A stretch of 46,073 bases of DNA, taken from the sequence record SRR20825006_2196, one strand, 5' to 3'. Shown piece after piece: positions 11,752 to 46,073 of this stretch (positions are counted from its first letter, which is position 1; the number at the start of each line of letters is the position of its first letter). A program made the position numbers and the translations under genes. Below the pieces are notes generated by a model, which was given only the letters and a program-made list of their open reading frames with translations, was not told where the DNA came from and made no database searches.

Positions 11752-11963
11752 TCATCGTTTGGCAATTGATTTTATATCTTCATCCTCTTTAATCGCCCGC
11801 TTGTCGCCATCCGTTTGCCGGTTGAAAAGCCTCAGGACTAATTTGGGACTCAAGTCACATAAAGTATTAACCGGGTGTAGCACCGGAAGCCGCCGGTCCC
11901 AGGGAAGATCTCCTTGTCTGGGATGTTCAGGGATAGATGCCGATTTCATGGATTGTGGAAACG

Positions 11964-12935
11964 ATGAGAAAGCAACGGCTGGGCTTTGTAGGATTGGGGG
12001 ATGACACGGCAAGCGCCTGCTTGTCCATGTTGAAGATCATGGATGGCCGGTCTGAAGTGGACTGGAGTCATAGTGATCCTGACAGCGCAGATGTGCTGAT
12101 GATTTCCTGCGATCAAACGGATGAAACGCAACGCTGGGAGCGCAGCGGCAAGCCGCGCATTGTCGTATACCACGGTAATCAGCAAAAACCGGCGTCGCCA
12201 TTTATTCTGCAGCACCCTTTTCGGGTCATGCAGTTGTTATCCGTGCTCGACGAAGTTGCGGGCACCTTGTCGTCTGGGGGAACGTCACTGTCCCATTCCC
12301 CTGCCCAAGTGGCTGCGCCCTCTACGTCTGTATCCAATAATGTCTCCCCTTTTTGGTTATCCCTGCATGAGGCGGTTAACGGAAACGTGACAGACCCGGC
12401 AGGACTGTTGGTGTCGTCATCGTCCCATGGCGTGCTGTACTTCAAGCCGGCGTCACAGCGTTTTTATGCAAGCAAGGCGCTGTTCCGCCAGTTGGCTGCA
12501 GGTTCCGTAGAGTTAGGCCCCCTGAAACCTACCGCAGAGGCTGTACCGGAAGAGACGGTGGCTTGCCCGCTGTTTTCATTGTGCTGGATGGTGTCACGTT
12601 ATGGCGCAACGCATCTGGCACCCTGGATGAATCCTGAAGGAGCCTTTCATCTTAAACGCTGGCCCAGTTTCGGCACCCTGGAAAAGAGCCGCACGCATTT
12701 GTCTCTGTGCGCCTTGATGACCAAGCGCCCCCTGACCCGCGAACAAATTCAGCAAGTGTCACACTGCAGCGAGGAAGAGCTGGATAGGTTCATCAATGCG
12801 TGTGAAATGAGTGACCTGATGGTGTTCGAGGAAGCCGTTCAGGTGCCGTTGCCGGAGGCCGCTGCCGAGGAAGGAAAAGGACGCTTTGGTGGTTTGATCA
12901 AAGGCTTGCGCAGTCGATTGGGGTTGAGTGCTTAG
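11964..12935 (+). CDS. Hypothetical protein: receiver-like N-terminus, S/P-rich linker, C-terminal wHTH-like region and amphipathic tail; partner of the GTPase module
   Basis: ADVLMISCD...ILQHPFRVMQLL resembles a receiver fold; LKRWPSF...PLTREQI...LDRFINAC; tail GRFGGLIKGLRSRLGL; stop is 2 nt before the GTPase start. Confidence 0.7.
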   Translation: MRKQRLGFVGLGDDTASACLSMLKIMDGRSEVDWSHSDPDSADVLMISCDQTDETQRWERSGKPRIVVYHGNQQKPASPFILQHPFRVMQLLSVLDEVAGTLSSGGTSLSHSPAQVAAPSTSVSNNVSPFWLSLHEAVNGNVTDPAGLLVSSSSHGVLYFKPASQRFYASKALFRQLAAGSVELGPLKPTAEAVPEETVACPLFSLCWMVSRYGATHLAPWMNPEGAFHLKRWPSFGTLEKSRTHLSLCALMTKRPLTREQIQQVSHCSEEELDRFINACEMSDLMVFEEAVQVPLPEAAAEEGKGRFGGLIKGLRSRLGLSA

Positions 12936-12937
12936 CA

Positions 12938-13489
12938 ATGACAAATGACGAATTCAAAATTCTTTTTACCGGTCCCATGGGGGCAGGGAAAACCACGGCA
13001 ATTACTGCATTAAGTGACCAGGAATGTGTGTCCACGGATGTGGTGAATACCGATATCGACCAGTGCGACAAGGAAATGACCACGGCAGCGCTGGATTATG
13101 GCTTCATTGATATTCCTGGCGGGGGGGGTGTGCGCCTTTATGGCACACCAGGGCAGGAGCGGTTTCGGTTTATGTGGCCGATCCTTGCCAATAATGCTGC
13201 TGGTGTGATCGTGCTGTTGAATGGTGAGCACCCGGATCTGGATAGTCACCTGTCAGTGTTCGTCGATGCATTCTGGGAGCAGGGTGCCATGCCAATGGTC
13301 ATTGGCGTAGGCCGGTTGGCCAGCGAGGATTTTGAAATTATCGAACGAATCACCGATACCTTGCTGGAACGTCATATTTCGCCGCCCATTTTTTCTGTGG
13401 ATGTCAGGGAAAAAGACGATGTTCTGTTACTGGTCGAAGCATTGCTTTGCCAGATTGAAGTTAACGAAATGGGAATGATGCAAGCATGA
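12938..13489 (+). CDS. MglA/CvnD-like small Ras-superfamily GTPase
   Basis: G1 GPMGAGKT, TTAALDYG and G3 LYGTPGQERFRFMW; 183 aa. Confidence 0.88.
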   Translation: MTNDEFKILFTGPMGAGKTTAITALSDQECVSTDVVNTDIDQCDKEMTTAALDYGFIDIPGGGGVRLYGTPGQERFRFMWPILANNAAGVIVLLNGEHPDLDSHLSVFVDAFWEQGAMPMVIGVGRLASEDFEIIERITDTLLERHISPPIFSVDVREKDDVLLLVEALLCQIEVNEMGMMQA

Positions 13490-13890
13490 AAGTCGCCTCT
13501 CCGCTGGGAAAAACCGAAACGGCGGTTGCCCAGAAAGAACTGGAAAATTTTCAGGAAAATACCAAAGGGGTTACCTCGGCAGTACTGCTGAGTGCCGATG
13601 GGTTTGAAGTGGCCTCGTTACAGGTGAACAAGGATAGCGCAAGCCGGCTTGCAGCCATGGGCAGTTCGTTGGCGGCGATAAGTTCCGCCATTGCCAAGGA
13701 GGCGGGCATTTCCGAATGCAGCAGATTGATTGTTGAATCGGACGAAGGCGTTGTTGCGGTCATGAAGGTTCCGAATCTAAAGCCACCACTGGCACTTGCA
13801 GTGGTGGCGAACGATGCCTCTTTGTTGGGGCAGCTTCTCTGGGGGGCCAAGAACTGTTGTGCCTCTCTTGAGGAAAAACTAAAAAAGTAA
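13486..13890 (+). CDS. Roadblock/LC7 domain protein (MglB-like)
   Basis: GVTSAVLLSADGFEVA, RLAAMGSSL and LGQLLW motifs; ATGA overlap with the GTPase. Confidence 0.88.
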   Translation: MKVASPLGKTETAVAQKELENFQENTKGVTSAVLLSADGFEVASLQVNKDSASRLAAMGSSLAAISSAIAKEAGISECSRLIVESDEGVVAVMKVPNLKPPLALAVVANDASLLGQLLWGAKNCCASLEEKLKK

Positions 13891-13945
13891 ATTTTATAAC
13901 CCGATGAAAATATCGGGATAACATAAGTGTTGAAGGAGATTTACC

Positions 13946-14305
13946 ATGGCTAATGTCAAAGAAAGTATGGATGTACTGCTGCAGTCTGACGGTGCCATGT
14001 GTACCGCCATTGTTGATGCCAACAGTGGCATGGTGCTGGGTCAGGCCGGCAGCGGGCTGGACCTGGAGCTGGCAGCGGCGGGCAATACGGAAGTGGTCCG
14101 CGCCAAGTTGAAAACCATGAAGTCGCTGGGTCTCAATGACAAGATTGAAGACATCCTGATTACCCTCGGGACCCAGTATCATATTATTCGTCCGGTGGCT
14201 TCGAAAGAAGGCCTGTTTATCTATCTGGTGCTGGACAAAAGCAAATCGAATCTGGCCCTGGCTCGCCGTAACTGTCAGGAAGTGGAATCCACGCTGTCGC
14301 TGTAA
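13946..14305 (+). CDS. Second roadblock-like small protein
   Basis: GAMCTAIVDANSGMVLG, LAAAGNTEVVRAK, IEDILITL..QYHIIRP and NLALAR; strong GAAGGAG SD. Confidence 0.8.
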   Translation: MANVKESMDVLLQSDGAMCTAIVDANSGMVLGQAGSGLDLELAAAGNTEVVRAKLKTMKSLGLNDKIEDILITLGTQYHIIRPVASKEGLFIYLVLDKSKSNLALARRNCQEVESTLSL

Positions 14306-14315
14306 TCTGCTTTCA

Positions 14316-14348
14316 CCCCGCCATGCCTTCTGGTTGGCGGGGCTTTTT
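14316..14348 (+). terminator. Intrinsic terminator ending the GTPase operon
   Basis: ccccgcca...tggcgggg stem followed by cttttt. Confidence 0.7.
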
Positions 14349-14402
14349 CTCATTCCTCTTTTTCTTTTCCCCTTTCCGTTTTCTTTATTGCTTCCTGGGA
14401 AT

Positions 14403-17231: not shown

Positions 17232-18095
17232 TCAGTAACCACTGTCCTCTGCGTCGCCGCTGAGGCGTTCGCGCCGTTCTTGTTCTTCCTCAAACGCGGC
17301 TTTAATTTCTGCCAGCACATCATCCACATCGGCAATGTGCTCGTCGTCGTCCACGTGGCCGCTGAGTTCGGTATCTGGTGTCAGCTCCCCGCTTTCATAC
17401 AAGGCCCAGATTTCCTGGCCGTAGCGGCTGCCGCGCAGTGACGGTGCGTACTGGCCGTAGTAGCGGGTCATGTTGTCCACGTCGCGATACAGCATGGCTT
17501 CGGCGTTGTTGTTGGCGGCGGCATCCACGGCCTGGGGCAGATCGATGATCACCGGGCCGTAGTCGTCTACTAGCACATTGAATTCCGACAGATCGCCGTG
17601 AACCACGCCGGCGCAGAGCATGCGAACCACGTACTGCATCATCAGGGCGTGGTCTTCTTCGGCTTGCTCGGCGGACATGACCACCTCGCTTAGCCGGGGA
17701 GCCACATCGCCTTCGTCGTCGGTGACCAGTTCCATCAACAGCACGCCTTCGAGCATGTCGTAGGGCTTGGGCACGCGCACCCCGGCGCTGGCAAGCAGGC
17801 GCAGGGCATCCACTTCGGCGCTCTGCCAGATTTGCTCCTGCTGTTCGCGGCCAAATTTGGAACCCTTTTCCATGGCCCGGCTGCGGCGGCTGTTACGCAC
17901 CTTGCGCCCTTCCCGATACTGGGCAGCTTTCTTGAAGTTGCGCTTGGCGGCTTCCTTGTAGACTTTCGCGCAGCGGATCTCCTGGCCACAGCGGACCACG
18001 AAGATATCGGCTTCCTTGCCACTCATCAGACGGCTGATGACCTCATCGACGAGACCGTCATCGACCAGGGGCTGTAAACGTTGCGGGGTTTTCAT
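17232..18095 (-). CDS. RIO1-like protein kinase (PA4780 family)
   Basis: MKTPQRLQPLVDDGLVDEV, SGKEA, AKVYK, VHGDLSEFNVL and IIDLPQAVD. Confidence 0.9.
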   Translation of the reverse strand: MKTPQRLQPLVDDGLVDEVISRLMSGKEADIFVVRCGQEIRCAKVYKEAAKRNFKKAAQYREGRKVRNSRRSRAMEKGSKFGREQQEQIWQSAEVDALRLLASAGVRVPKPYDMLEGVLLMELVTDDEGDVAPRLSEVVMSAEQAEEDHALMMQYVVRMLCAGVVHGDLSEFNVLVDDYGPVIIDLPQAVDAAANNNAEAMLYRDVDNMTRYYGQYAPSLRGSRYGQEIWALYESGELTPDTELSGHVDDDEHIADVDDVLAEIKAAFEEEQERRERLSGDAEDSGY

Positions 18096-18196
18096 GCCGC
18101 ACTTATACCTTATTTGGCGCACGGCTTCGCCTGCTTCCTGCGGTTTTCGGCGAGGATGGGCAGAGAAAGTCGGGTGTGACGGTAAGGGGGATGATG

Positions 18197-34745: not shown

Positions 34746-35745
34746 GTGTCAGTTCAATGGTCAGGGTTTCGCCATGCTGCGGAACCCGAAAATGTGCGTG
34801 TTCAATGTGTTGTTCTGTCAGGGCCTGGGCCAGCGCCTTGGGCGGCGCATCCATGGGTTCGTCTGTGAGCACGAAAGTGCCCCAGTGCATGGCCAGGGAC
34901 TGGCGCGCCTGAATATCCTGGTGGATTTTAACCGCTTCTGCCGGGTTGATGTGCACCGGTGACATGAACCAGCGCGGCTCGTAGGCCCCAATGGGCAATA
35001 ATGCCAGATCTACCGGTCCGAATACTTGTCCAATTTCGTTAAACAGCGGTGCATACCCGGTATCGCCGGCAAAATAGAGGCTGAAATCCGGGAAATTAAG
35101 GCGCCAGCTGCACCACAGGGTCTGGTTGTGATCGTTAGGACCCCGTCCGCTGAAATGCTGGGCGGGCAGGCAGAAAGCCTCCACCTGGCCATGGTAGTCG
35201 CTCTGCCACCAGCCCAGCTCGATGATCCGTTCTACCCCCAACTTGCGCAGCCAGGCGGCAATACCCCGGGGAACGAACCAGAGAATGTCGCGCCCGAAGC
35301 GGGCCTGTAATTGCTTTACCGAGGCCTTGTCCAGGTGGTCGTAGTGGTTATGGGATATCAGCACCGCATTGATGTCGGGCAGTTGCTCGATGGTGAGTGC
35401 TGGCGGCACCGCCCGTTTCGGGCCGGCGAAGGTGAACGGGGAGCAACGATCGGAAAACACCGGATCGGTGAGCAGGTTCCAGCCCCGGTGCTGGAACAGA
35501 TAGGTGGCGTGGCCGATCCAGGTGATTTGCGGGCGGTTGCCGGGGTGGCGCAGTTGCTCCGGATCCGGGGTGTGTAACGGAAAGGACTGGTGGTCGGGGA
35601 AGCGCCCGCGTGATTCCCATTGCCAGCGCAGGAAGGCGCCGAGCCCGTGGTGTGGGGTGGCAAACCGGTTGCGAAAAACCTGCCCGCGGCGCTGGCTGGC
35701 GGGTTCTTCGGCGGCCAGCGCCGCCAGTCGCTCACGGTCGATCAT
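34738..35745 (-). CDS. MBL-fold metallo-hydrolase, NAPE-PLD/RomA-like
   Basis: TWIGHAT, LTDPVFS, SHNHYDHLD, PAQHFSGR, YFAGDTGY, PIGAYEPRWFM and MHWGTF. Confidence 0.88.
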   Translation of the reverse strand: MIDRERLAALAAEEPASQRRGQVFRNRFATPHHGLGAFLRWQWESRGRFPDHQSFPLHTPDPEQLRHPGNRPQITWIGHATYLFQHRGWNLLTDPVFSDRCSPFTFAGPKRAVPPALTIEQLPDINAVLISHNHYDHLDKASVKQLQARFGRDILWFVPRGIAAWLRKLGVERIIELGWWQSDYHGQVEAFCLPAQHFSGRGPNDHNQTLWCSWRLNFPDFSLYFAGDTGYAPLFNEIGQVFGPVDLALLPIGAYEPRWFMSPVHINPAEAVKIHQDIQARQSLAMHWGTFVLTDEPMDAPPKALAQALTEQHIEHAHFRVPQHGETLTIELTHE

Positions 35746-36197
35746 GCCGGTTGCTGTAGCCCCGCCACAGCACCTTCAATGGCATCCAGATCCGGGATTA
35801 CCGCCAGGTCGCCACCCACCTGAATATACATGGCCTCCGCCGGGCCGGTGTCTACCGGCTCTTCCACCGGGTCGTCCTTGGCCACTTTCATCAGGCGAGG
35901 AATCCCCTGCACGATCACTGCATAAAAAGGCGCCTTGCTGGCTACCGTGTTGAGCACGGCAATCCGGGCATCCTGGCCGATGGTGACCTGGCCGGATTCG
36001 TTGAGTTTTTCGAATGACAGCAGTGGGATCTGCTGGTCACGCCAGCTCAGCCAGCCCAGCAGCCACTCCGGGCCATGGCCCGGGCGATCCGGCTGACGCA
36101 ACGGGATCACCTCGGCCACCACAATATTGGGCACCAGCCAAGGGCGCCCCTGCATGGGGATCAACAGGCTGGAAATATCGGATGGTAAGCTGCTCAT
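35742..36197 (-). CDS. chpC: CheW-like adaptor ChpC
   Basis: LLIPM...LVPN..VAEVI, WLLGWLSWR and IVQGIPR; follows chpB; GAGAGG SD before ATG 36197. Confidence 0.85.
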   Translation of the reverse strand: MSSLPSDISSLLIPMQGRPWLVPNIVVAEVIPLRQPDRPGHGPEWLLGWLSWRDQQIPLLSFEKLNESGQVTIGQDARIAVLNTVASKAPFYAVIVQGIPRLMKVAKDDPVEEPVDTGPAEAMYIQVGGDLAVIPDLDAIEGAVAGLQQPA

Positions 36198-36216
36198 GGT
36201 TGACCTCTCAAATAGA

Positions 36217-36291
36217 CAGCACGCAGCAGGTTTCACTCAACAGGCTTATCCTTCGCCGTGTTGCGTTCCGCTTGTTGCATGTCGCGTGTTT
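36217..36291. repeat. Heptamer repeat (CGTGTTG-type) at the chpB/chpC junction
   Basis: cgtgttg/cgttccg/cttgttg/catgtcg/cgtgttt at 36257-36291 with a short inverted arm cagcacg/cagcagg at 36217-36230. Confidence 0.65.
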
Positions 36292-37286
36292 AATTCCCTT
36301 CTTACCCGCTCCACCAGTTGCAGCGCAAGCTGTTCGGGGGAGCCGCTAAAACTGACACAGCCGGTTTCACGGACGGAATCCGGCTGGCTGCTGACCGCAC
36401 AGGTGTCTGCGCTTTGCGCCCACACCGGGCAACCGGTGGCCGCCAGTCGTGGCGCGGCGATGGCGCCGTCATTGCCCATGCCGGAGAACAGAATGGCGCC
36501 GCAGGCGCTGCCAAAGCCGTCCCCCACATGCTGGATAACCTGGTCGATGGAGGGCGCATAGGGGCCTTCCCAGGTGTCGCCGGTGGACTGGATACGGCCG
36601 TCATGGCGGAAACGCACGGCATACTCCACCGGCACAATGGCGAGTTCGCCGTGGCGCAGGGCTTCGCCGTCCACGCCGATTTTGCACTGGATAGGGTTAT
36701 CCCGGCCCAACACCCCGCACAGGGTATCCAGAAAACTGCCGTCAATGTGCTGGGCCAGCACAAACGCCACGGGCAAATTGGCGGGCAGGCAGTCGAGAAA
36801 CAGTTTTACCGCTGCCGGCCCACCCAGGCTGGCGCCCAGTACCCATACCTGGCGGGGGCGATCGCCGGGGCGGATGGCCTGGAATTCCCGTGGCTGGGGA
36901 ATGCGGATCCGGGGCGGTGGCGCGGGGATCACGTCCAGCCGCTCTTCCGCCGCTGGCTTGCCGATAAAACTCACCAGCTTGGTGACCAGGCGCCGCTCCC
37001 ATTTGGGGTAGCGGATATCGGTGCGTGCCGGGGCCTGGCCGTCACAAAACAGAATCGGTACCTCGGCGCGCTCCAGCAGGTCGTCGAGGAAGTGCTGCCA
37101 GCGATCTTCGCTGGACAGATCCACCACCCACAGGTCCAGCGCGTCTGCGGCCAGCCAGCGGTCTTCCAGGGCTTCCGGTTCGGTGCTGACCAGTACCTGA
37201 TAGCCCTGGCCCTTCACCGCACTGGCGAGCAAGTGGCCCTGCAATGTGCTGTCGGCGATGACCCCGACGCGGCCGGGCGCGGTCAT
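36246..37286 (-). CDS. chpB: CheB-like methylesterase ChpB
   Basis: GASLGGP, AQHID and SGMGNDG catalytic motifs; ATGA overlap with chpA. Confidence 0.9.
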   Translation of the reverse strand: MTAPGRVGVIADSTLQGHLLASAVKGQGYQVLVSTEPEALEDRWLAADALDLWVVDLSSEDRWQHFLDDLLERAEVPILFCDGQAPARTDIRYPKWERRLVTKLVSFIGKPAAEERLDVIPAPPPRIRIPQPREFQAIRPGDRPRQVWVLGASLGGPAAVKLFLDCLPANLPVAFVLAQHIDGSFLDTLCGVLGRDNPIQCKIGVDGEALRHGELAIVPVEYAVRFRHDGRIQSTGDTWEGPYAPSIDQVIQHVGDGFGSACGAILFSGMGNDGAIAAPRLAATGCPVWAQSADTCAVSSQPDSVRETGCVSFSGSPEQLALQLVERVRRELNTRHATSGTQHGEG

Positions 37287-40200
37287 CCGTTATCCGTTTC
37301 CTGCAGTTCGCCCAGCAGTTCGCGAATGGTGGACAGCAGTTCGTTCTCCTGGAACGGTTTGCCCATATAACAGTTCACGCCAATATCGAAGGCCCGCTCG
37401 CGATGTTTTTCACCGGTTCGGGAGGTGATCATGATAATTGGCACATCCTGCAGGCGGCTGTCGTGGCGCACGTGGGTGGCCACTTCAAAACCGTCCATGC
37501 GGGGCATTTCGATATCCAGCAGCATCACATCCGGGCGGATATCTTCCAGCTTGGCGATGGCGTCGATGCCGTCTTTGGCGGTGACCACTTCGTAGCCATT
37601 ACGCTCCAGCAGGCGGGTGGTGACCTTGCGCACGGTAACCGAGTCATCGGTGACCATGACCAGCGGCGTGTCACGCTGCGGCTGGAGCTCTTCTTCCGGC
37701 TCCTGGGGCAGTGTCGGTACGGTCTCGCCGGCTGCCAGGGCGGTGGTCTGCACGTGAGCGGCACGGATCAGGGAATGGATATCCAGAATGATCACCACGG
37801 AGCCATCCCCGAGGATGGTGGCGCCGCTGATGCCAGCCACGGTGGCCAGCTGCGGGCCAACCGCTTTCACTACCACTTCCCGGGAACCGACCAGGTCGTC
37901 CACTACGATGGCGACGGTGTGTTCGGTGCTGCGAATCAGCAGTACCGGCATGGGGGTGGTCTGGTTCTCCAGGTGCGGGACCCGGTTGCCGTGGACAAAG
38001 TGGCCCAGGTACTGCAGTTCGTAATCCTGGCCCACGTAGGTGTAGACGGGATTCTCTTCTTCGAAATAGTGCTGCAGTTCGAACGGGCTGATCCGCACGA
38101 TCCCTTCGATCTGGTTCAACGGAATCGCGTAGGAGTCTTCCGCCGCTTTCACCATCAGGGCGCGGTTCATGGCCAGGGTGAATGGTAGGCGGATGATGAA
38201 GCGGGTGCCCTGCCCTTTACGGGAGTCGATGGTGACCGAGCCGCCCATCTGTTTGATTTCACTGGCGACCACGTCCATGCCCACGCCGCGCCCGGAAATC
38301 TGCGTGACGGCGGCGGCCGTGGAGAAGCCGGCGTGGAAGATGAACTGCTGAATTTCCTGCTCGGAGAGCTGCGCATCGGCGGCGATCAGGCCTCGCTCGA
38401 TGGCTTTTTGGCGCACCGCATCGGTATCGATACCCTTGCCGTCATCGGACAGGGTAATCACTACCTCGCCCCCTTCACGGCCCAGTTCCAGGTTGATGCG
38501 ACCGGTGCTGTCCTTGCCGGCAGACTGACGGCCTTCACTGGTTTCGATACCGTGGTCTACGGCATTACGCAGCATATGCTCCAGTGGGGCGACCACACGC
38601 TCCATCAGGGAACGGTCCAGCTCCCCTTCCGGGTTGAGCACATCGAAGTCCACGCGCTTGTCCACTTCGCCGGAAATCTGCCGGACGATACGGCGCAGAC
38701 GCGGCACCAGGCGGCTGAAGGGCACCATGCGGGTGCGCATCAGTTTTTCCTGCAGCTCGGTGTTGATCCGTGCCTGCTGCAGCAGCAGGGTTTCGGTGTC
38801 CTTGTTGCGGTCCAGCAGGGTGTTCTTCAAATCCAGCAAGTCAGAGGCGGACTCGGACAGCTGCTTGGTGATCTGGTGCAATTCGGAGTACTGATCCATT
38901 TCCAGCGGATCGAAGTCCTCGTCGTATTCGCCGAGATCCACGCCCTTCTGGTAGTTGGACATGATCTGCGCTTCGGTTTCCGAATCCAGCCGGCGCAATT
39001 GTTCGTAAAGGCGCTGTACCGTGTTGCCCATCTCTTCCACGTTGAAGGCGAACTCGGTGATGCCCTGCTCGACCCGGCCACGGTTGATGGAGGTTTCCCC
39101 GGCCAGGTTTACCAGAGCCTCAAGCACATCCGCGCCGACCCGTACCATTTCTTGCGGTTGCGCCTGATTCTGGCGCTGACGGCGGTCGTCTTTCTGCGGT
39201 TGCTGTGGCGCGGGCTGTTTGTCGGTGGCTGCCGGCAAGGTGTTGGCCGGTGCAGCGGCATCCGGGGTCTCGGCGACCGGTGCGTTGGTTTGTGCGGCCG
39301 CAGCGACGGACTCCATGCCCCGATTGATCTGATCGTGCCAATCCAGCATGGGCTGGAAGTCGCTCTGGGCGGGCGTCTGGCGACGGCTTTCCAGGTCGAG
39401 CAAATAGGTTTCGAAATCGTGGCTGATGTCGCCCAGCTGTTTGAGGCCGGCCAGTCGTGCGCCCCCTTTCAGGGTGTGCAGCGCCCGTTTCAGATCGTCG
39501 ATAAAGTCGGTGCTTTCCGGATGATCTTTCCAGGAGGTCAGGCAGGCATCGATGATGTCCGACAGTTCTTCGGATTCTTCCAGGAAAATGTCCAGAATTT
39601 CCGGGTCGCTGTCTGACTGCCAGGTGTCATCGGCGGCGGTGTTGGCCGGCGTGGGTGCCTCGCTGGCTGCTGTTGCTGGCGGCGGGCTGGCCGGTTGTGA
39701 TACCGGGCTGGCCGCTATGGCGGGCAGGGTAAAGCCCGTCGGATCGGCGGCATAGCCGTGGATAGCGGTGATCAGCACCTCGCCACTGGGCAGTGGGCGG
39801 TCGGCTTTCAGGGCTTCCACCATCTCCGCCAATTGGTCGTGGCAGCGATGGAGCAGATCGAACAAGCTCGGTTCGATAGCCAGCTGGCTCTGGGCCAGCC
39901 CTTCGTAGAGCGTTTCCAGTTCGTGGCCCAGGTCACCCAGCTCCGGGACTTCGGCCATGCGTGCGCCACCCTTGAGGGTATGCAGGTCACGCTGCAGGGA
40001 TTGAAGTTCAAGCAGGTTGTCCTGCTGGCTGATCCACAGCTCCAGGCTGTTGCCGGCGGATTCGAGAATTTCCTCGGCTTCTTCCAGGAAGATTTCGACC
40101 AGCTCCGGGTCGCGCTCCGGTTGAGGGGGCGCATCAGCGGGCGCGGGCGCGTCCTCAACCGCAACGGGCGCGGTGGCGTCAGTGGCCGAGCTGTCGCTGG

Positions 40201-43200
40201 ATTCACTGTCCTCGACACTCTTGAGCGGCTGGGTGCTGTTGTCGTTCAGGCTTGCAGGGGTAGCGGGCGCCGGGGCTTCGCTACGGATGAAGGCCTGAAT
40301 GGCCGCCACCAGAGCGGGGGCATCAGCCGGAGCGGTGTTGGCCTGCAGGTTTTCGATCATCACCGCCAAGCTGTCATGGCACTGATGCAGGAGCTGGAAA
40401 AGGGCCGCATCGGATTCCAGCTGCCCGGCATTATAGCCTTCGTACAGATTTTCCAGTTCGTGGGCCAGGTCGCCGACCGGGGCAACGCCGGCCATGCGGG
40501 CGCCGCCCTTGAGCGTGTGCAGATCGCGTTGCAGGCTGCTGACGTTGCTGCTGTCGCCGGCTTCCCACTGGTCGAGAATGTGACTGGCGGACTCGAGGAT
40601 TTCTTCGGCCTCTTCCAGAAACAGTTCCACCAGCTCCGGGTCCAGGTGGGCTTCGTAGCGGCTGTTGTCCGGAAACTCCGCGGAGATCTCGCTAACCGGG
40701 GGCGTGTTGTTTTGCAGGGTGTCGCTGCTGTCGTCGTTATGGCCATCGACAGGCAGGCCGCCGTCCGGGCCGCCATCGGGTCCGCCGCCTTCGGCCAGCT
40801 CGCGCAGGGCATCCACCAGTCCCAGCTCCGGGCGGACGGTCTGGCCGGCGGCCAGGCAGTCCATCATGTTCATCAACGCGTCCTGGCCTTCGCCCGCGAG
40901 GGCGAACAAGCGTTCGCTGTAGGCCAGGCGATCGCCTTCCACCGCGCTGTAGCAGCCAGCCAGAGCCGCGGCCAGATCGTGAATCTCGTTGAGGCCGGCG
41001 GTGGTGGCGCTGTTGGACAGCAGTTCCAGTTCGTCGCGCAGTCGCACCAATTCGTCGGTGTGCTCGGGGTGCTGTGCCCACTGGCTGAGCAGCTGCTCAG
41101 CATCCACGATCAGGTCCATGCCTTCGGACAGGAATACGGACAAAATGTGCGGATCCGGGCCGGGGCTGTCGCTGCCCTGCAGTTGATCGCGTTGTTGATT
41201 CAGTGACTGGATCAGGGCATCGGCGCCGGGCAGATGGGCCGGCGGGGTCGGGTCAAGCTGATCCAGACTGCTGAGAATCAGATCGTGGCTCTGGGCCAGC
41301 AGGTCAACCTGTTGCTGGTTGGCGCGGCGGTTGCTGCTGATCAGGTCCCGGGCGAGCTTTTCGGCCGGCTCGGCCACTTCGGCCACGGCTTCGATTTCTG
41401 CCATGCGGGCGCTGCCCTTGAGGGTGTGCAGGGCGCGATGCACGCTGTCGTCTACCGGGTGTTCGGACAGGTCGGTGTCGTTGCCGGCCAGCCACTGGGC
41501 GATCAATGCCAGGTTGCGGCGGGCTTCGCTGGAAAAGATTTCCAGCAGGACGGTGTCCGGGCCTTCTTCGCTCATGTCCGGAATGTCGGACAGGCTCTCG
41601 GCAGCCGCAGCACTGCTGTGGGCAGGGGCCTGGGTGTCGTAGTCCGGTTCCTGCTCTGGCAGGTCCAGAGTGAGGCTTTCGTCGATCTCGGTAAGGTCGT
41701 TGTCCACCGGCAGGACGTGGATGTCATCGCTGCTGTCGTCAGTGTCCCAGGGGGTGAGGCTATCTTCACTGGCGGCATCAAAGGCGGCCAGATCCTCGGC
41801 GGACAGGGTATGGTCGGTGGACGTGGCGTCGGCGTTTTCAGCGGACGGCAGCTCGGTGAGTTCCAGTGTGCTGTCGGGCTCGCTGTGCACATCGGCTTCC
41901 AGGGCGTCCGGGCTGACATCAGCGGTCGTGCCTGTCGCGGTGTCGTCGATGGTGTCGGTGGCGCTGTCGGCGGCAACGATCACGGGTACCTGATCGATCT
42001 GGCCACCGGCGGCGAGGGTGTCGGCGGCATCGGCCAGCGGCTGCACGTCAAACGGGTCCGGCTGGCGCAGGGTAAAGGCATCCACCAGGGCGGGTACGCG
42101 ATTTCGAACTTCCTGGACCAGGGCGATCAATACGGCGGTGGGCACAATGGTGCGGTCGATAACCCGGTTCAGCATGTTTTCGACGGACCAGCCCAGTTCC
42201 CCTACGGTGCTGGCGCCGACCATGCGGCCGGATCCTTTCAGGGTGTGGAAGGCGCGGCGGAATTCCACCAGGGACTCTTCGTCGCTGGTGTTAGCGGCCC
42301 AGCGCGGGAAGTATTCGTCCAGGGCGTCCAGTACTTCGCCCACTTCTTCCTGGAAGATCTCGATGATTTCGTCATCGATCAGGTCGTCGTCATCGTCGTT
42401 ATGAGTGTCGGCGTCTGATGCTTGCGGTGCGTGCGTTTCGGGCTCTGCCGGGGCGGTGATTTCCAGGGTAGGATCGAGCAGTTCGTCATCGTCGCTGCTG
42501 TCGAAATCCGGGCCCTCGTCGTCGCTCTCCAGCGGCTGTAGTTCCAGCGTGGGGTCCTGGTCCTGTGCGGTGGTGCCGGTTTCGTCGTCGAGCTGCCCGT
42601 TGGCAGAGAATCCGGACCAGGCATCCACATCGTGTTCTTGGGATACGTGGGCGTCAGCGTCTAGTCCCGTTTGTTCCAGTTCAATGCGTTCTACGTCGAT
42701 GTCGTTATCGTCAAAGTCCTGTTCTTCTTCCAGCGGATAGCCCAGTGCATCCACACTGGCGCGGGCCAGCTGCAGGATATCGTCGGTGGTGGTCGGGTCG
42801 TCGCTGAGACGCTCCAGGTAGTATTCCACCGAGGTGATGGCGTCAGCGAGGGTATCCATGCTGCGCCAGTCGGGTTTGGGCTGATCCGCGTCCAGCAGCT
42901 TTTCTTCGATGAACTGCACGCACTGGCGCAGGATCAGGGCAGGTTTGCTTAGCTGGATCACATCCAGACCACCGCGGACAGCGTTCAGGCGTTCGGGCAC
43001 CACTTGCAGGGGGTCGGGATTCCACTGGGAGGCAATGAATTCCACGATGCCGTCTTTGGCTTCTTCCAGCCCGGCCCGGCATTCGCGCAGCACGGCGTCC
43101 ATGGCCTGGCCCACATGGCTGGGCATGTCGTCGCCGTGACCGGCATAGCCGGTGCTGCGGCGATCGCCGCTGATGCCGGCCAGGGTGGCTTCCACATAGA

Positions 43201-44410
43201 GCAGGGCGCCGGCGATATCCATCAGGTTTTCACGTTCGGCGGGGACCTTGCCGGCGACAATGTCTTCCATGGCGTGCAGTTGCTCTTCCACCAGGGCGCG
43301 GGGCTGACCCAGGCCGAGCACGGCCACGGTGTCGGCTACCTGCTTCAGGGTGAGCGTGAGCGGTTGCAGTTTGTTGGTATCGGTGTCGCCACTGTGCACG
43401 AAGCTTTCCAGGGCGTCTTTCACTGTGGTGAGCTCTTCGGAAAGCGCCTGCACCACGGAGTTCATGGCCTGGGCGTCCGGGCCGGTCATCCGCTGGCGTT
43501 CTTCATTGACCAGGTCATCGGAGGGCAGCGCTTCATCCAGCCGGAAACGGGCTTTTACATCGCGGATGCGGGGGCTGTCCACGTCGGCCTTGGCCACGTA
43601 GTAGAGCAGGTTCTTGATCAGTTCGGTGGGGGCTGGCCGGTTCAGGCTGGCCGCCCCTTCCACCGCCAGCTCACGCAGGTTGCGGTCCACGTGACCGAGC
43701 ATCAGCTTGACGGAGGTGCCGAGAATAATGGCGTCTTCGGAGAGGCCTTCCACCAGCGCGTTACTGATGGACCACAGCGGAGCACGTGGTGCGTCGCCGG
43801 TGACCTGTTCCAGTTTGGTGAAAACCTTGGCCATGTAGCCCAGGTTTTCGTCCATGTTGTCGTTGCGTAGTACGCCGAGCAAGGCGATCTGGAACATCTG
43901 GCGGATTTTTTTCGCCAGCAGGATAAAGCGTGGGTCGTTGAGCAGGTCGTCGGGAATCTGGCCTTGCCCGGTTGCTTCGCTGAGATCCGGTTTGAACAGG
44001 GAGGTTTCCGACAACAGGGATTCGCCGCGGGCGGCGCGCAGGTCATTGAGCAGTGGCAGCAATACCACCGGCAGATCTCGGCGGTTGCTGGCGACCCGGT
44101 CCAGGTATGGCGGCAGCTGCAGGATCGCCCGCATCAGGGTTTCCTGGCTGTCAGTCACATTGCCTACATTGCCGTCGAGCAGTGCCTGCGCCAGTTTTTC
44201 CATTTCTTCGGCGAGCAGTGCCGCACCGTAGAACTCCACCATCTGCAAGGTGCCGTACACCTGATGCAGGTGGGTCTGGCAGAAACGCATGCGAGTGGCG
44301 TCGTCCGGGTTGTCCACGAACGATTCCAGTGCCTGTTGCGCCTGGTTCAGGGTTTCCTGGATTTCCCCGCGAACCCAGTCCAGAGCCAGATAGTCGTGAC
44401 GGTCACTCAT
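37283..44410 (-). CDS. chpA: Chemosensory pili hybrid histidine kinase ChpA (multiple Hpt, HATPase, CheW, receiver)
   Basis: N-terminal ALDWVRGEI; five HTLKG Hpt motifs; HMLRNAVDHG, DDGKG and SGRGVGMDVV; C-terminal LLDIEMPRMDG receiver. Confidence 0.95.
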   Translation of the reverse strand: MSDRHDYLALDWVRGEIQETLNQAQQALESFVDNPDDATRMRFCQTHLHQVYGTLQMVEFYGAALLAEEMEKLAQALLDGNVGNVTDSQETLMRAILQLPPYLDRVASNRRDLPVVLLPLLNDLRAARGESLLSETSLFKPDLSEATGQGQIPDDLLNDPRFILLAKKIRQMFQIALLGVLRNDNMDENLGYMAKVFTKLEQVTGDAPRAPLWSISNALVEGLSEDAIILGTSVKLMLGHVDRNLRELAVEGAASLNRPAPTELIKNLLYYVAKADVDSPRIRDVKARFRLDEALPSDDLVNEERQRMTGPDAQAMNSVVQALSEELTTVKDALESFVHSGDTDTNKLQPLTLTLKQVADTVAVLGLGQPRALVEEQLHAMEDIVAGKVPAERENLMDIAGALLYVEATLAGISGDRRSTGYAGHGDDMPSHVGQAMDAVLRECRAGLEEAKDGIVEFIASQWNPDPLQVVPERLNAVRGGLDVIQLSKPALILRQCVQFIEEKLLDADQPKPDWRSMDTLADAITSVEYYLERLSDDPTTTDDILQLARASVDALGYPLEEEQDFDDNDIDVERIELEQTGLDADAHVSQEHDVDAWSGFSANGQLDDETGTTAQDQDPTLELQPLESDDEGPDFDSSDDDELLDPTLEITAPAEPETHAPQASDADTHNDDDDDLIDDEIIEIFQEEVGEVLDALDEYFPRWAANTSDEESLVEFRRAFHTLKGSGRMVGASTVGELGWSVENMLNRVIDRTIVPTAVLIALVQEVRNRVPALVDAFTLRQPDPFDVQPLADAADTLAAGGQIDQVPVIVAADSATDTIDDTATGTTADVSPDALEADVHSEPDSTLELTELPSAENADATSTDHTLSAEDLAAFDAASEDSLTPWDTDDSSDDIHVLPVDNDLTEIDESLTLDLPEQEPDYDTQAPAHSSAAAAESLSDIPDMSEEGPDTVLLEIFSSEARRNLALIAQWLAGNDTDLSEHPVDDSVHRALHTLKGSARMAEIEAVAEVAEPAEKLARDLISSNRRANQQQVDLLAQSHDLILSSLDQLDPTPPAHLPGADALIQSLNQQRDQLQGSDSPGPDPHILSVFLSEGMDLIVDAEQLLSQWAQHPEHTDELVRLRDELELLSNSATTAGLNEIHDLAAALAGCYSAVEGDRLAYSERLFALAGEGQDALMNMMDCLAAGQTVRPELGLVDALRELAEGGGPDGGPDGGLPVDGHNDDSSDTLQNNTPPVSEISAEFPDNSRYEAHLDPELVELFLEEAEEILESASHILDQWEAGDSSNVSSLQRDLHTLKGGARMAGVAPVGDLAHELENLYEGYNAGQLESDAALFQLLHQCHDSLAVMIENLQANTAPADAPALVAAIQAFIRSEAPAPATPASLNDNSTQPLKSVEDSESSDSSATDATAPVAVEDAPAPADAPPQPERDPELVEIFLEEAEEILESAGNSLELWISQQDNLLELQSLQRDLHTLKGGARMAEVPELGDLGHELETLYEGLAQSQLAIEPSLFDLLHRCHDQLAEMVEALKADRPLPSGEVLITAIHGYAADPTGFTLPAIAASPVSQPASPPPATAASEAPTPANTAADDTWQSDSDPEILDIFLEESEELSDIIDACLTSWKDHPESTDFIDDLKRALHTLKGGARLAGLKQLGDISHDFETYLLDLESRRQTPAQSDFQPMLDWHDQINRGMESVAAAAQTNAPVAETPDAAAPANTLPAATDKQPAPQQPQKDDRRQRQNQAQPQEMVRVGADVLEALVNLAGETSINRGRVEQGITEFAFNVEEMGNTVQRLYEQLRRLDSETEAQIMSNYQKGVDLGEYDEDFDPLEMDQYSELHQITKQLSESASDLLDLKNTLLDRNKDTETLLLQQARINTELQEKLMRTRMVPFSRLVPRLRRIVRQISGEVDKRVDFDVLNPEGELDRSLMERVVAPLEHMLRNAVDHGIETSEGRQSAGKDSTGRINLELGREGGEVVITLSDDGKGIDTDAVRQKAIERGLIAADAQLSEQEIQQFIFHAGFSTAAAVTQISGRGVGMDVVASEIKQMGGSVTIDSRKGQGTRFIIRLPFTLAMNRALMVKAAEDSYAIPLNQIEGIVRISPFELQHYFEEENPVYTYVGQDYELQYLGHFVHGNRVPHLENQTTPMPVLLIRSTEHTVAIVVDDLVGSREVVVKAVGPQLATVAGISGATILGDGSVVIILDIHSLIRAAHVQTTALAAGETVPTLPQEPEEELQPQRDTPLVMVTDDSVTVRKVTTRLLERNGYEVVTAKDGIDAIAKLEDIRPDVMLLDIEMPRMDGFEVATHVRHDSRLQDVPIIMITSRTGEKHRERAFDIGVNCYMGKPFQENELLSTIRELLGELQETDNG

Positions 44411-44460
44411 GACGTCTCCTGTCATACATCAACCCGCCTTCTTTGGTGGGCAGGTTTTTA

Positions 44461-44574
44461 TAATGCGCAACACGTAACATGCAGCAGGCCCCGAGCCGGT
44501 GGTTGCTGATGGGTGCTACCCCAAGCCTTTTCTTTTTCGCGTGCCGCATGTTGCGTGCCGCGTGTTGCGTTATG
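44461..44574. repeat. Heptamer-armed inverted element (CGTGTTG-type) between pilK and chpA
   Basis: taatgcg/caacacg/taacatg/cagcagg ... cgtgccg/catgttg/cgtgccg/cgtgttg/cgttatg. Confidence 0.75.
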
Positions 44575-44587
44575 TCTTTCTGCGTTT

Positions 44588-45466
44588 CTATCGACAGCGC
44601 CGGAATGCCAGCGTATCGGCAAAGTGAATCCGTTCCAGATCCGGATGTTGCCAATCAGTCACTTCCCCGGGCCCGAGTATCAGGATGCCTCCTGGTGCGA
44701 GCCGTTCCGCCAGCCGGTTCACGATCTGACGTTTACGCCAGCGGCGGAAGTAAATCAGCATGTTCTGACAAAAAATCAGATCCATGTTGTTCATTGGTGC
44801 CGTGCTGAGATCCAGCACGTTAAGCCGCGCGAAGCAGATGCGTTCGCGTAGTGCCCCGGTGATGGTCACGGTTTGCCCGTTCCCGGTGGGCTCGAAATAC
44901 TTGTCCCGCAACAGCGGGTCGACCTGCAATACCCGGCGTGCGGCATATTCGCCTTTGCGGGCCTTGGCCAGGGTGGGCAGGCTGATGTCGGTGGCCGTGA
45001 TGCCGTAGAACCGTTTCTGCTCGCTGGCGGAAAACTGCTCGTTGATCATCATGGCCAGGGAATAGGCTTCCTCACCGGTGGAGCAGCCCACGCTCCACAC
45101 ATCCAGGCTGGCGCTCGCCGGCTGTTCGGCCATGAAACGCTGAGTAAATTCTTCCACCAGCGCGTAGGAACCGGGATGCCGGAAGAAACTGGTTTCCTGG
45201 ACGGTCAGACGGTCCACCAGCACGGACCATTCCATGGCCCGTGACTGGGTGGAACCCACCATCAGGTGTTCGTAATAGGTGTCGTAGTCCTCGATGCCCA
45301 GCTCGCGCATGCGAATGTTCAAGCTGGTTTCGAGGAAGGTCTTGCGCTCGTTGGACAGCGACATGCCGGTGCGGTCTTCCAGCAGCGCCTGCCATAGCTG
45401 GAACTGCTCCGCATCCATGGCGGGCGTGCTTTTGATCGACCAGCGATCTGTCACTGCAGCACCCAT
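44588..45466 (-). CDS. pilK: CheR-like methyltransferase PilK
   Basis: TVQETSFFRH, WSVGCSTGEEAYSLAM, ATDIS and IFCQNMLIYF. Confidence 0.92.
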   Translation of the reverse strand: MGAAVTDRWSIKSTPAMDAEQFQLWQALLEDRTGMSLSNERKTFLETSLNIRMRELGIEDYDTYYEHLMVGSTQSRAMEWSVLVDRLTVQETSFFRHPGSYALVEEFTQRFMAEQPASASLDVWSVGCSTGEEAYSLAMMINEQFSASEQKRFYGITATDISLPTLAKARKGEYAARRVLQVDPLLRDKYFEPTGNGQTVTITGALRERICFARLNVLDLSTAPMNNMDLIFCQNMLIYFRRWRKRQIVNRLAERLAPGGILILGPGEVTDWQHPDLERIHFADTLAFRRCR

Positions 45467-45497
45467 GGCATGTCTCCCGAGACCGGCTCAGGCCGGA

Positions 45498-46073
45498 TCA
45501 GGAGTGCTCCGGCAGGCGGAAGCCGGCAACGGAGTTACGCATTTCCTGGGCCATCTCGGCCAGGTTACCAATGGACCGTGCTGTTGCGGTGGTACCGGCA
45601 GAGGTCTGTGAGGTAATTTCCTGGATCACGTTCATGGTGTTGGAAATGTGACCCGCGGAGGCCGCCTGCTGGCGTGCCGCGTTGGAAATGTTCTGGATCA
45701 GGTCCGCCAGGGTTTTCGATACGTTCTCAATTTCTTCCAGCGCCACACCCGCATCCTGTGCCAGGCGTGCCCCTTTCACTACCTCGGCAGTGGTGGCTTC
45801 CATGGAGATAACCGCTTCGTTGGTATCGGTCTGAATCGTTTTAACCAGGGTTTCAATCTGCTTGGTTGCCGCAGCAGAACGTTCCGCGAGGCGTTGTACC
45901 TCATCCGCAACCACCGCGAAGCCCCGGCCGGCTTCACCGGCCATGGATGCCTGAATGGCGGCGTTCAATGCGAGAATGTTGGTCTGGTCGGCGATGTCGT
46001 TAATCAACGATACGATGTCACCAATTTCCTGGGAGGATTCACCCAGACGCTTGATCCGTTTGGAGGTTTCCTG
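45498..46073 (-). CDS. pilJ: Methyl-accepting chemotaxis protein PilJ (3' part; runs off the window)
   Basis: [38 protein letters not shown] signalling domain; upstream of pilK-chpA. Confidence 0.9.

Follow-up and report, generated by a model that had tools for sequence, protein, structure and literature searches.

A kinase-free Group 3 MglA operon from a gammaproteobacterium, with a candidate conservon-like regulator of its small GTPase and a divergent roadblock-type protein

A stretch of 46,073 nucleotides from sequence record SRR20825006_2196 (hereafter the window) carries a compact cassette of four genes, encoding a protein with receiver-like and winged-helix-like parts (P1), a small GTPase (G), and two different roadblock-type proteins (R1 and R2). 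Comparison with related genomes confirms the cassette as a genuine, intact, and strongly co-conserved operon. It is a Group 3 MglA system, an already catalogued type, and it displays the features of that group, clade placement of the GTPase aside. We further put at roughly 0.55 the probability that this operon is a kinase-less proteobacterial relative of the actinobacterial conservon, with P1 as a CvnC-like regulator of G. Since both the gene arrangement and the reading of its first protein were already in a 2014 survey of MglA-like GTPases, the novelty of the operon itself is lowered. What is new here are three points: R2 as an unrecognised and constrained roadblock subfamily, a weak likeness of P1 to DUF742, and a predicted interface between P1 and G. 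They yield two testable leads, namely the R2 subfamily and P1 as a fused CvnC-like regulator. The genes and their terminator are as follows.

11964..12935, plus strand: P1, open reading frame (ORF) of 323 amino acids (aa); first gene of the cassette, the conserved domain-of-unknown-function (DUF) protein of Group 3 MglA systems
12938..13489, plus strand: G, ORF of 183 aa; small GTPase of the MglA/CvnD type
13486..13890, plus strand: R1, ORF of 134 aa; Roadblock/LC7 protein of the CvnB/MfpD type
13946..14305, plus strand: R2, ORF of 119 aa; divergent protein with a predicted roadblock fold
14316..14351, plus strand: intrinsic terminator, a GC-rich hairpin (14316-14342) followed by a U-run, CUUUUUCUC

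A preliminary description of this DNA had proposed four co-oriented, tightly packed genes closed by a single terminator, and the ORFs, junctions, and hairpin agree with it. Read from the letters, P1 and G are separated by 2 nt (TAG-CA-ATG), the start of R1 overlaps the stop of G by 4 nt (ATGA, in gcATGAaa), and R2 follows R1 after a spacer of 55 nt, with an AAGGAG ribosome-binding site ahead of its start codon. The terminator hairpin has a predicted folding energy of -21.3 kcal/mol (z -4.85), and none of 200 shuffles folds equally well; a consensus terminator scan, which considers loops of 3-8 bases only, did not pick it up, and a sigma-70 promoter scan upstream of P1 returned no sites. An alternative ATG at 11937 would lengthen P1 by nine residues to 332 aa; in the alignment, distant homologues begin at the position of 11964, without these extra residues. 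The ORFs of the window include no kinase in or adjoining the cassette, so the kinase-free character ascribed to it earlier stands. The 46-kb window likewise holds no third or orphan roadblock and no paralogue of any cassette gene, the sole extra signal being a 14-bit match at 384-551 within the region of another gene. The R1-R2 spacer itself contains a 7-bp hairpin (CCCGAUG...UAUCGGG, 13900-13917) with no U-run. This hairpin is weak (z -1.96 for a 61-nt stretch, with 6 of 200 shuffles folding equally well), and it could tune the expression of R2.

The window derives from an Alcanivorax species: the closest relatives of P1, at 96-97% identity, carry the label Alcanivorax sp., strain DG881 among them. 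When one genome was scanned for each species, 37 loci were found to encode a P1 relative: 20 from Alcanivoracaceae-type genomes and 17 from Rhodanobacteraceae/Lysobacteraceae (e.g., Dokdonella, Tahibacter). By tblastn, 36 of the 37 hold all four genes in the same order, and the arrangement is therefore beyond chance, as a neighbourhood check suggested in the preliminary description would have it. The exception is a Tahibacter metagenome-assembled genome (locus L027, 4540-4690), in which a deletion, either genuine or produced by the assembly, has fused the opening codons of G to the final third of R2. Our own ORF calls recover the four-base G-R1 overlap in 36/36 loci, a count that is partly given by construction because start codons were picked by alignment to the window proteins, and R2 is 119 aa long in every one of the 36. 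The genes that flank the cassette in the window (coaD upstream, a dehydrogenase downstream) are retained in only the closest 8 and 7 loci, respectively, and among flanking gene families within 4 kb none is common to more than one lineage, the most widespread reaching 8 of 36 loci. Since the gene order is kept while the flanks change, the conserved module consists of exactly these four genes.

The same four-gene order is found on a Ralstonia megaplasmid (L039, 2258-4360) and a Comamonas plasmid (L042, 3226-5360), where the first protein is shorter (244 and 235 aa) and lacks the middle domain of P1. In these two loci R2 is 71-76% identical to its counterpart in the window, and G just 31-37%. Within the window, the guanine-plus-cytosine (GC) fraction of the operon is 0.529, against 0.596 for the whole stretch; at third codon positions, GC amounts to 0.54-0.64 in the operon and to 0.69-0.79 in the coaD, dehydrogenase, and gamma-glutamyltransferase genes. 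Taken together, the low GC of the operon, its changing flanks, and the plasmid-borne copies fit a horizontally acquired module.

The assignment to Group 3 follows the classification of Wuichet and Sogaard-Andersen (2014, Genome Biol Evol; PMC4316618), who distinguish five groups of prokaryotic MglA-like GTPases and report Group 3 'almost exclusively' from beta- and gamma-Proteobacteria, in a neighbourhood of a conserved DUF protein, an MglA homologue, and one or two MglB homologues. Their Table S2 gives 44 Group 3 rows, 14 of which, from Neisseria, Leptothrix, Acidithiobacillus, Methylomonas, Methylomicrobium, and Teredinibacter, show the order DUF>MglA>MglB>MglB, which is the order of P1>G>R1>R2; the earlier suspicion that related operons might be known from genomic surveys was thus correct. 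Alcanivorax occurs nowhere in three supplementary files of the survey (PMC4316618). The taxonomic range also agrees, the host here being a gammaproteobacterium. In the same survey, a variable linker connects the conserved N- and C-terminal regions of the Group 3 DUF protein, which have no Pfam family and which Phyre2 assigned as receiver-like and winged-helix-like (PMC4316618); P1 combines a receiver-like N-terminus with a variable linker and a C-terminus resembling a winged helix-turn-helix (HTH), and it too has no Pfam family. A hidden Markov model (HMM) of the P1 family indicates that P1 is homologous to the upstream DUF proteins of other beta- and gammaproteobacterial systems: run against small ORF sets, it picks out the ORF immediately preceding the GTPase gene both in Ralstonia (7.4e-18) and in Comamonas (5.4e-12), and in a Neisseria gonorrhoeae record it matches two fragments (4.9e-5 and 1.1e-4). 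In that record (L038, 1885-3530), which is filed as a plasmid yet is chromosome-sized at 2.17 Mb, the DUF and GTPase genes are each split into two pieces in different frames, and both look interrupted. The Neisseria locus also differs from the window in its second roadblock, which by eye looks canonical rather than R2-like and is not matched there by tblastn with R2; hence only a subset of Group 3 has the R2 subtype and the P1 middle domain.

The GTPase itself carries the Group 3 pattern. G passes a single Pfam model, ATP_bind_1, at 29.0 bits (cut-off 27), whereas its matches to Roc, MMR_HSR1, Arf, and Ras fall below their respective cut-offs; its earlier description as a Ras-like GTPase is upheld. 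Across 27 aligned sequences, the P-loop GPMGAGKTT (residues 12-20) is invariant at G12, P13, M14, G15, G17, K18, T19, and T20, as are T48, T49, G69-T-P-G-Q73, G125, R126, D155, and R157. In a profile alignment to Sec4, G125-R126 fall at the N-K of NKxD and D155-V-R157 at S-A-K. In the survey, Groups 2-5 have Thr in place of the arginine finger and the sequence GTPGQ, while Groups 2 and 3 deviate at NKxD and have D-A-R as G5 (PMC4316618); G correspondingly has Thr at the G2 finger site, GTPGQ, no Lys in G4, and D-V-R as G5. The hallmarks of the Group 1 MglA proteins of Myxococcus and Thermus, namely an intrinsic arginine finger, TVPGQ, and NKxD, are not present in G, which has T-T, GTPGQ, and G-R-x-x at these sites. 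In our own GTPase tree of 35 rows, long branches prevented the resolution of a Group 3 clade; those leading to the CvnD, Ralstonia/Comamonas, and Neisseria rows measure 2-4.5 changes per column and lie in an unresolved region.

It could be argued that G is not a guanine-specific switch at all, and instead binds ATP or another nucleotide, or serves as a static scaffold subunit. The substitution of G125-R126 for N-K and of a variable residue for the Asp, which leaves G with neither the Lys nor the Asp of NKxD, points in this direction and away from our reading, as does the name of the only Pfam model passed, 'ATP_bind_1'. We regard this alternative as very improbable, given that the P-loop, the catalytic Gln of GTPGQ, and the threonines of switch I are invariant in all 27 sequences, and that CvnD9, with a deviant G4 and a D-A-R G5, has GTPase activity according to the survey (PMC4316618). 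Because the Lys and Asp of NKxD are missing, the guanine specificity of G is assumed from this conservon GTPase.

P1, the component on which a relation to the conservon most depends, can be divided into five parts.

11964..12272, plus strand: residues 1-103, receiver-like alpha/beta domain (predicted fold, Foldseek)
12276..12335, plus strand: residues 105-124, variable and disordered linker (predicted local distance difference test, pLDDT, below 50; length and composition vary)
12348..12653, plus strand: residues 129-230, predicted middle alpha/beta domain (from the model; no family matched)
12654..12830, plus strand: residues 231-289, R232-W233-P234 and a winged-helix-like module (alignment, model)
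12876..12917, plus strand: residues 305-318, C-terminal amphipathic helix (tail ...GL-x-x-L-R-x-R-L-G-L)

Sequence searches place P1 in a large family of its own. No Pfam or NCBIfam model matches P1, and no Pfam model matches any of 31 aligned family members; searches by sequence against solved structures (E<=10) and by tblastn against plasmids were also empty. The family nevertheless counts 2150 representatives at E<=1e-3, 703 at 1e-10, and 97 at 1e-30. A protein search with P1 returned 107 matches, mostly metagenome proteins and among them a Steroidobacter flavus protein, and in a language-model atlas residues 125-295 fall in Pseudomonadota clusters only (score 0.90). The AlphaFold2 (AF2) model of P1 (pLDDT 80.3) agrees with the receiver-like N-terminus and winged-helix-like C-terminus proposed in the preliminary description. 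Foldseek matches to the N-terminal domain are almost all response-regulator receivers, although weak ones (E 5.3e-3 to 3e-2, target template-modelling (TM) score 0.5-0.58), and none is found at E<=1e-3; neither P1 nor any of the 31 family members has a Response_reg Pfam match. Residues 46-52, which follow strand 3 and correspond to the site of the phospho-acceptor Asp, include no invariant or nearly invariant residue in the alignment. Since there is no conserved Asp, the N-terminus is a pseudo-receiver, for which phosphorylation at the canonical site would be impossible. The motif H84-P85-x-R87-V88-M89 is invariant; receivers have K-P at the position matching H84-P85.

The middle domain is missing from the shorter Ralstonia and Comamonas homologues, which the P1-family HMM aligns without profile positions ~122-217. 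A PATAN (DUF4388, PF14332) identity had been suggested for P1 and found no support in this domain: Pfam gave no match, and hhalign against two PATAN-bearing proteins gave a probability of less than 1%, a weak test in that it is a single-sequence comparison. Among the family matches anticipated in the preliminary description, ATP_bind_1 in G and Robl_LC7 in R1 were recovered, and Robl_LC7 in R2 and DUF4388 and REC in P1 were not found by Pfam.

The C-terminal module begins with the invariant R232-W233-P234 and continues in a predicted winged-helix-like bundle (helices 243-254, 259-266, and 270-282; strand 286-289). In the tail, L315, R316, L319, G320, and L321 are invariant, and the terminal motif [LIVMF]xx[LIVMF]RxxL occurs within the last 30 residues of 160/182 P1-family proteins. 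This layout is shared with DUF742: nine DUF742 proteins, drawn from ten conservon loci on actinobacterial plasmids, consist of an HTH module, a linker of 15-25 residues, and a short amphipathic helix at the C-terminus. When the alignment of 182 P1-family sequences was compared with that of the nine DUF742 sequences by hhalign, the two matched over 72 columns (score 33.4, probability 53.8%, E 1.3e-4), with P1 positions 256-332 aligned to DUF742 positions 60-131 and the match running to both C-termini. As controls, the reversed DUF742 alignment scored 12.0, and 25 column shuffles scored at most 17.8. A relation of the C-terminal module of P1 to DUF742 (CvnC/MfpC) is accordingly suggestive, as judged from profile similarity, rather than established.

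Structure prediction offers a second line of evidence. The four proteins G, R1, R2, and P1 were co-folded in one run with P1 as the scored chain, giving a score of 0.74, against 0.00 for the best of three controls; in calibration, the mark was reached by 51/78 solved complexes and 2/108 mismatched pairs. At least 85% of contacts recur between the co-fold runs, and partner pLDDT is at least 76. All of the named contacts join P1 to G, involving residues 171, 199-205, 231-255, 265, and 297-321 of P1 and residues 4-6, 25, 57-65, 88, 129-153, and 163-181 of G. The predicted interface covers 8 of the 14 invariant residues in the C-terminal half of P1 (R232, W233, A250, L315, R316, L319, G320, and L321), and 0 of the 14 invariant residues of the pseudo-receiver. 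The model thus supports, and does not show, direct binding of G by the C-terminal module of P1.

Several observations weigh against reading P1 as a CvnC-like regulator. Smaller P1 alignments compare less well with DUF742 (alignment A5 reaches a probability of 27%, and A1 gives nothing), none of the 31 P1-family members has a DUF742 Pfam match, and cross-matches between winged-helix domains are common. The co-fold departs from its calibration in having four chains and no alignments, and the mark was also attained by 7/44 pairs of neighbouring genes drawn blindly. Further, the predicted contact on G lies mainly on its conserved C-terminal helix (163-181) and on residues 129-153, away from the switch regions, a placement equally compatible with a scaffold and with an exchange factor. 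Because the contact avoids the switches, a constitutive partner or an allosteric exchange factor fits better than a classical effector. In this respect P1 looks less like the effector or localisation factor envisaged in the preliminary description than like a direct regulator of the GTPase, given the DUF742 likeness and its predicted seat on the C-terminal helix of G.

It is also possible to see in P1 the output of the system, namely a DNA-binding transcription factor whose winged helix acts on promoters in one nucleotide state of G. Gene regulation was the proposal of the 2014 survey (PMC4316618), and it draws on the winged-helix-like fold modelled for the C-terminus and on sub-threshold matches of the Comamonas homologue to HTH_IclR (1.6e-4) and DprA_WH (3.8e-4). 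We consider this unlikely. The co-fold predicts that G buries both the first helix of the module and the terminal one, the 31 family members show no above-threshold match to a DNA-binding Pfam family, and no candidate target neighbour is conserved across lineages. In addition, the nearest family by profile, DUF742, is an exchange factor in mycobacteria, where MfpC is reported to bind MfpB and speed its nucleotide exchange, with MfpD as the GTPase-activating protein (GAP) (PMC11343762).

For P1 as a CvnC-like regulator, a working mechanism can be outlined by analogy with these systems. G would act as the switch, cycling between guanosine triphosphate (GTP)- and guanosine diphosphate (GDP)-bound forms, and R1 and R2 would form a roadblock platform that stimulates GTP hydrolysis, as MglB and MfpD do; we infer both the R1-R2 pairing and their putative GAP activity from this analogy. 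P1 would bind G through its RWP motif, winged-helix part, and terminal amphipathic helix. Since its C-terminal module resembles DUF742 (CvnC/MfpC), P1 most likely controls nucleotide exchange or holds G in the complex, and an exchange activity of P1 would be the corresponding prediction. The pseudo-receiver and middle domain may, finally, replace the histidine kinase as an input or docking part.

The two roadblock-type proteins, which the preliminary description had already distinguished from one another, differ in how readily they are recognised. R1 matches Robl_LC7 at 1.1e-10, and its profile finds conservon roadblocks among solved structures: the mycobacterial Rv3364c at 7.4e-11 and Streptomyces CvnB5 (3leq) at 4.9e-6, with LAMTOR2 behind them at about 0.05. 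Its D38-G39 is invariant. R2, by contrast, has no match among Pfam or NCBIfam models (Robl_LC7, PF03259, being absent at E<=1), and its profile retrieves no chain from the PDB at E<=10. A link between R2 and R1 at the level of sequence is likewise rejected (hhalign probability 0.6%), and only predicted fold joins them. The AF2 model of R2 (pLDDT 87.0, predicted TM score, pTM, 0.81) comprises a helix, two strands, a long helix, three strands, and a helix. Foldseek with this model gives 101 PDB matches at E<=1e-3, led by Thermus MglB bound to MglA (3t12_C; E 1.8e-6, TM 0.80), with Myxococcus MglB, LAMTOR2, and archaeal roadblocks among the further matches (TM 0.7-0.82). By predicted fold, then, R2 appears to be a roadblock protein with the alpha-beta-beta-alpha-beta-beta-beta(-alpha) arrangement.

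R2 is also the most conserved component of the cassette, and is far more constrained than its partners. Between the window and Rhodanobacteraceae, synonymous sites are saturated in all four genes (pS 0.67-0.79), while nonsynonymous divergence (dN) is 0.14-0.18 in R2, 0.41-0.51 in G, 0.33-0.63 in R1, and 0.64-0.79 in P1. Averaged over alignment columns, identity across the two bacterial families reaches 85% in R2, compared with 68% in G and 62% in R1; for P1, on a different sequence set, it is 46%. A tblastn search of plasmid records with R2 matched 43 records, including those of Comamonas (75.6% identity), Ralstonia megaplasmids (70.6%), Streptomyces, Deinococcus, and other Actinomycetota (54-60%), and Hymenobacter. 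The Comamonas plasmid is annotated as hypothetical > GTPase > roadblock/LC7 > hypothetical; as the counterpart of R2 is labelled 'hypothetical', R2 goes unrecognised by genome annotation. R2-like genes 59-60% identical also stand in other contexts, on Deinococcus gobiensis plasmid P1 (L041, 3750-5363) and on a plasmid of Streptomyces sp. Alt3 (L040, 3016-5348). The Deinococcus gene is in frame, without a stop, and lies behind a DUF4388 (PATAN) protein (E 3.6e-13). On the Streptomyces plasmid, the R2-like gene adjoins a second R2-like roadblock, with a Robl_LC7 protein nearby and, also near it, a sub-threshold DUF4388 match (E 1.2e-3, 19.3 bits, cut-off 25) joined to a winged-helix protein.

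Likeness to characterised roadblock systems, as proposed earlier for both MglAB and the conservon, is borne out by the ATP_bind_1 match of G, the PDB relatives of R1, and the Foldseek match of R2 to MglB. With the Group 1 MglA-MglB pair of Myxococcus and Thermus, the cassette shares a Ras-like GTPase and regulators of roadblock fold, R2 having as its best structural match an MglB bound to MglA. Group 1 employs a roadblock homodimer, whereas the cassette encodes two unlike roadblocks. Two unlike roadblocks encoded together recall the eukaryotic Ragulator/LAMTOR complex, and LAMTOR2 does appear among the Foldseek matches of R2 and, weakly, in the profile search with R1. This likeness is at the level of fold only; the GTPases are unrelated beyond their superfamily.

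It might be supposed from the MglAB likeness that the cassette regulates cell polarity or type IV pili, as in Myxococcus, with P1 as a pole-targeting factor. Our literature searches found no biochemical study of any Group 3 system; they returned only the 2014 survey, a paper on Snodgrassella, and incidental Neisseria data. In Snodgrassella, a G78R mutation in the orphan third mglB of a Group 3 system is reported to give a gut colonisation advantage in a non-native bee host and to alter the colony edge on soft agar, and all three mglB genes are beneficial in transposon sequencing, according to the authors (PMC11112851). These phenotypes would suit a polarity or pilus role, as would the presence of R2-like genes beside PATAN (DUF4388) on the Deinococcus plasmid and near the sub-threshold DUF4388 match on that of Streptomyces. 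The Neisseria meningitidis data point the other way. NMB0478 is flanked by NMB0479 and by NMB0477, a 'GTP-binding protein'; a DNA-overlay screen recovered it from the inner-membrane fraction (PMC2885667; PMC5586341), and its null mutant is described as wild-type for aggregation, piliation, and competence (PMC2885667). The type IV pilus link drawn in the preliminary description is thus contradicted for this one homologue, and gene context lends it no support, with no pilus gene co-conserved beside the cassette in 36 loci. As G also lacks the Group 1 hallmarks, we judge a polarity or pilus role to be quite unlikely, and somewhat more so than a transcriptional one.

The window does contain a Pil-Chp-type chemosensory cluster (35745-46007, minus strand), which would favour such a role by its presence; ~21 kb separate it from the operon, however, and the two are not co-conserved. 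The genes of the cluster are the following.

35745..36236, minus strand: CheW-like gene
37286..44425, minus strand: ChpA-like kinase of 2380 aa with five Hpt stretches and CheW and receiver domains
44591..45466, minus strand: CheR
45501..46007, minus strand: methyl-accepting protein, end of gene

The comparison with the conservon (CvnA-D; Mfp in mycobacteria) returns us to the operon as its kinase-less relative. Shared elements are a CvnD-type GTPase, by the ATP_bind_1 match of G, a CvnB-type roadblock, by the structural relatives of R1, and a third protein in which an HTH module is followed by a short C-terminal amphipathic helix; this resembles a three-part core of GTPase, GAP, and exchange factor. 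Differences are no less clear: the conservon has the histidine kinase CvnA and the cassette no kinase, the third protein is here fused to a pseudo-receiver and a middle domain, the divergent roadblock R2 is extra, the conservon gene order is HK>MglB>CvnC>MglA, and the phylum is another. On a more speculative and rather doubtful reading, Group 3 systems and conservons would share an ancient three-part core (GTPase, roadblock GAP, and DUF742-like exchange factor), the proteobacterial exchange factor having been fused to a pseudo-receiver that replaces the kinase, and R2 would be a distinct, nearly universal roadblock adaptor (54-76% identity in three phyla) linking switches to partners such as PATAN proteins. 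If true, this reading would conflict with a 2026 preprint, according to which MfpC-type proteins are confined to Actinobacteria (PMC13015309).

Group 3 systems are widespread in beta- and gammaproteobacteria, among them pathogens of plants and humans, but they are functionally unexplored, and the compact, intact four-gene copy in Alcanivorax, a readily cultured and non-pathogenic marine oil degrader, would make a convenient model. If P1 is indeed a fused CvnC-type exchange factor, one mechanism could account for both proteobacterial and actinobacterial small-G-protein systems. R2, for its part, marks a candidate roadblock subfamily that current domain libraries miss and that is consequently annotated as 'hypothetical'.

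Two minor observations concern the cassette and its surroundings. A role in anti-phage defence was considered for the cassette and rejected, PADLOC giving no matches for the four proteins. Elsewhere in the window, at 17235-18122 on the minus strand, lies a gene for a RIO1-family protein kinase (1.3e-41), a family that is uncommon in bacteria.

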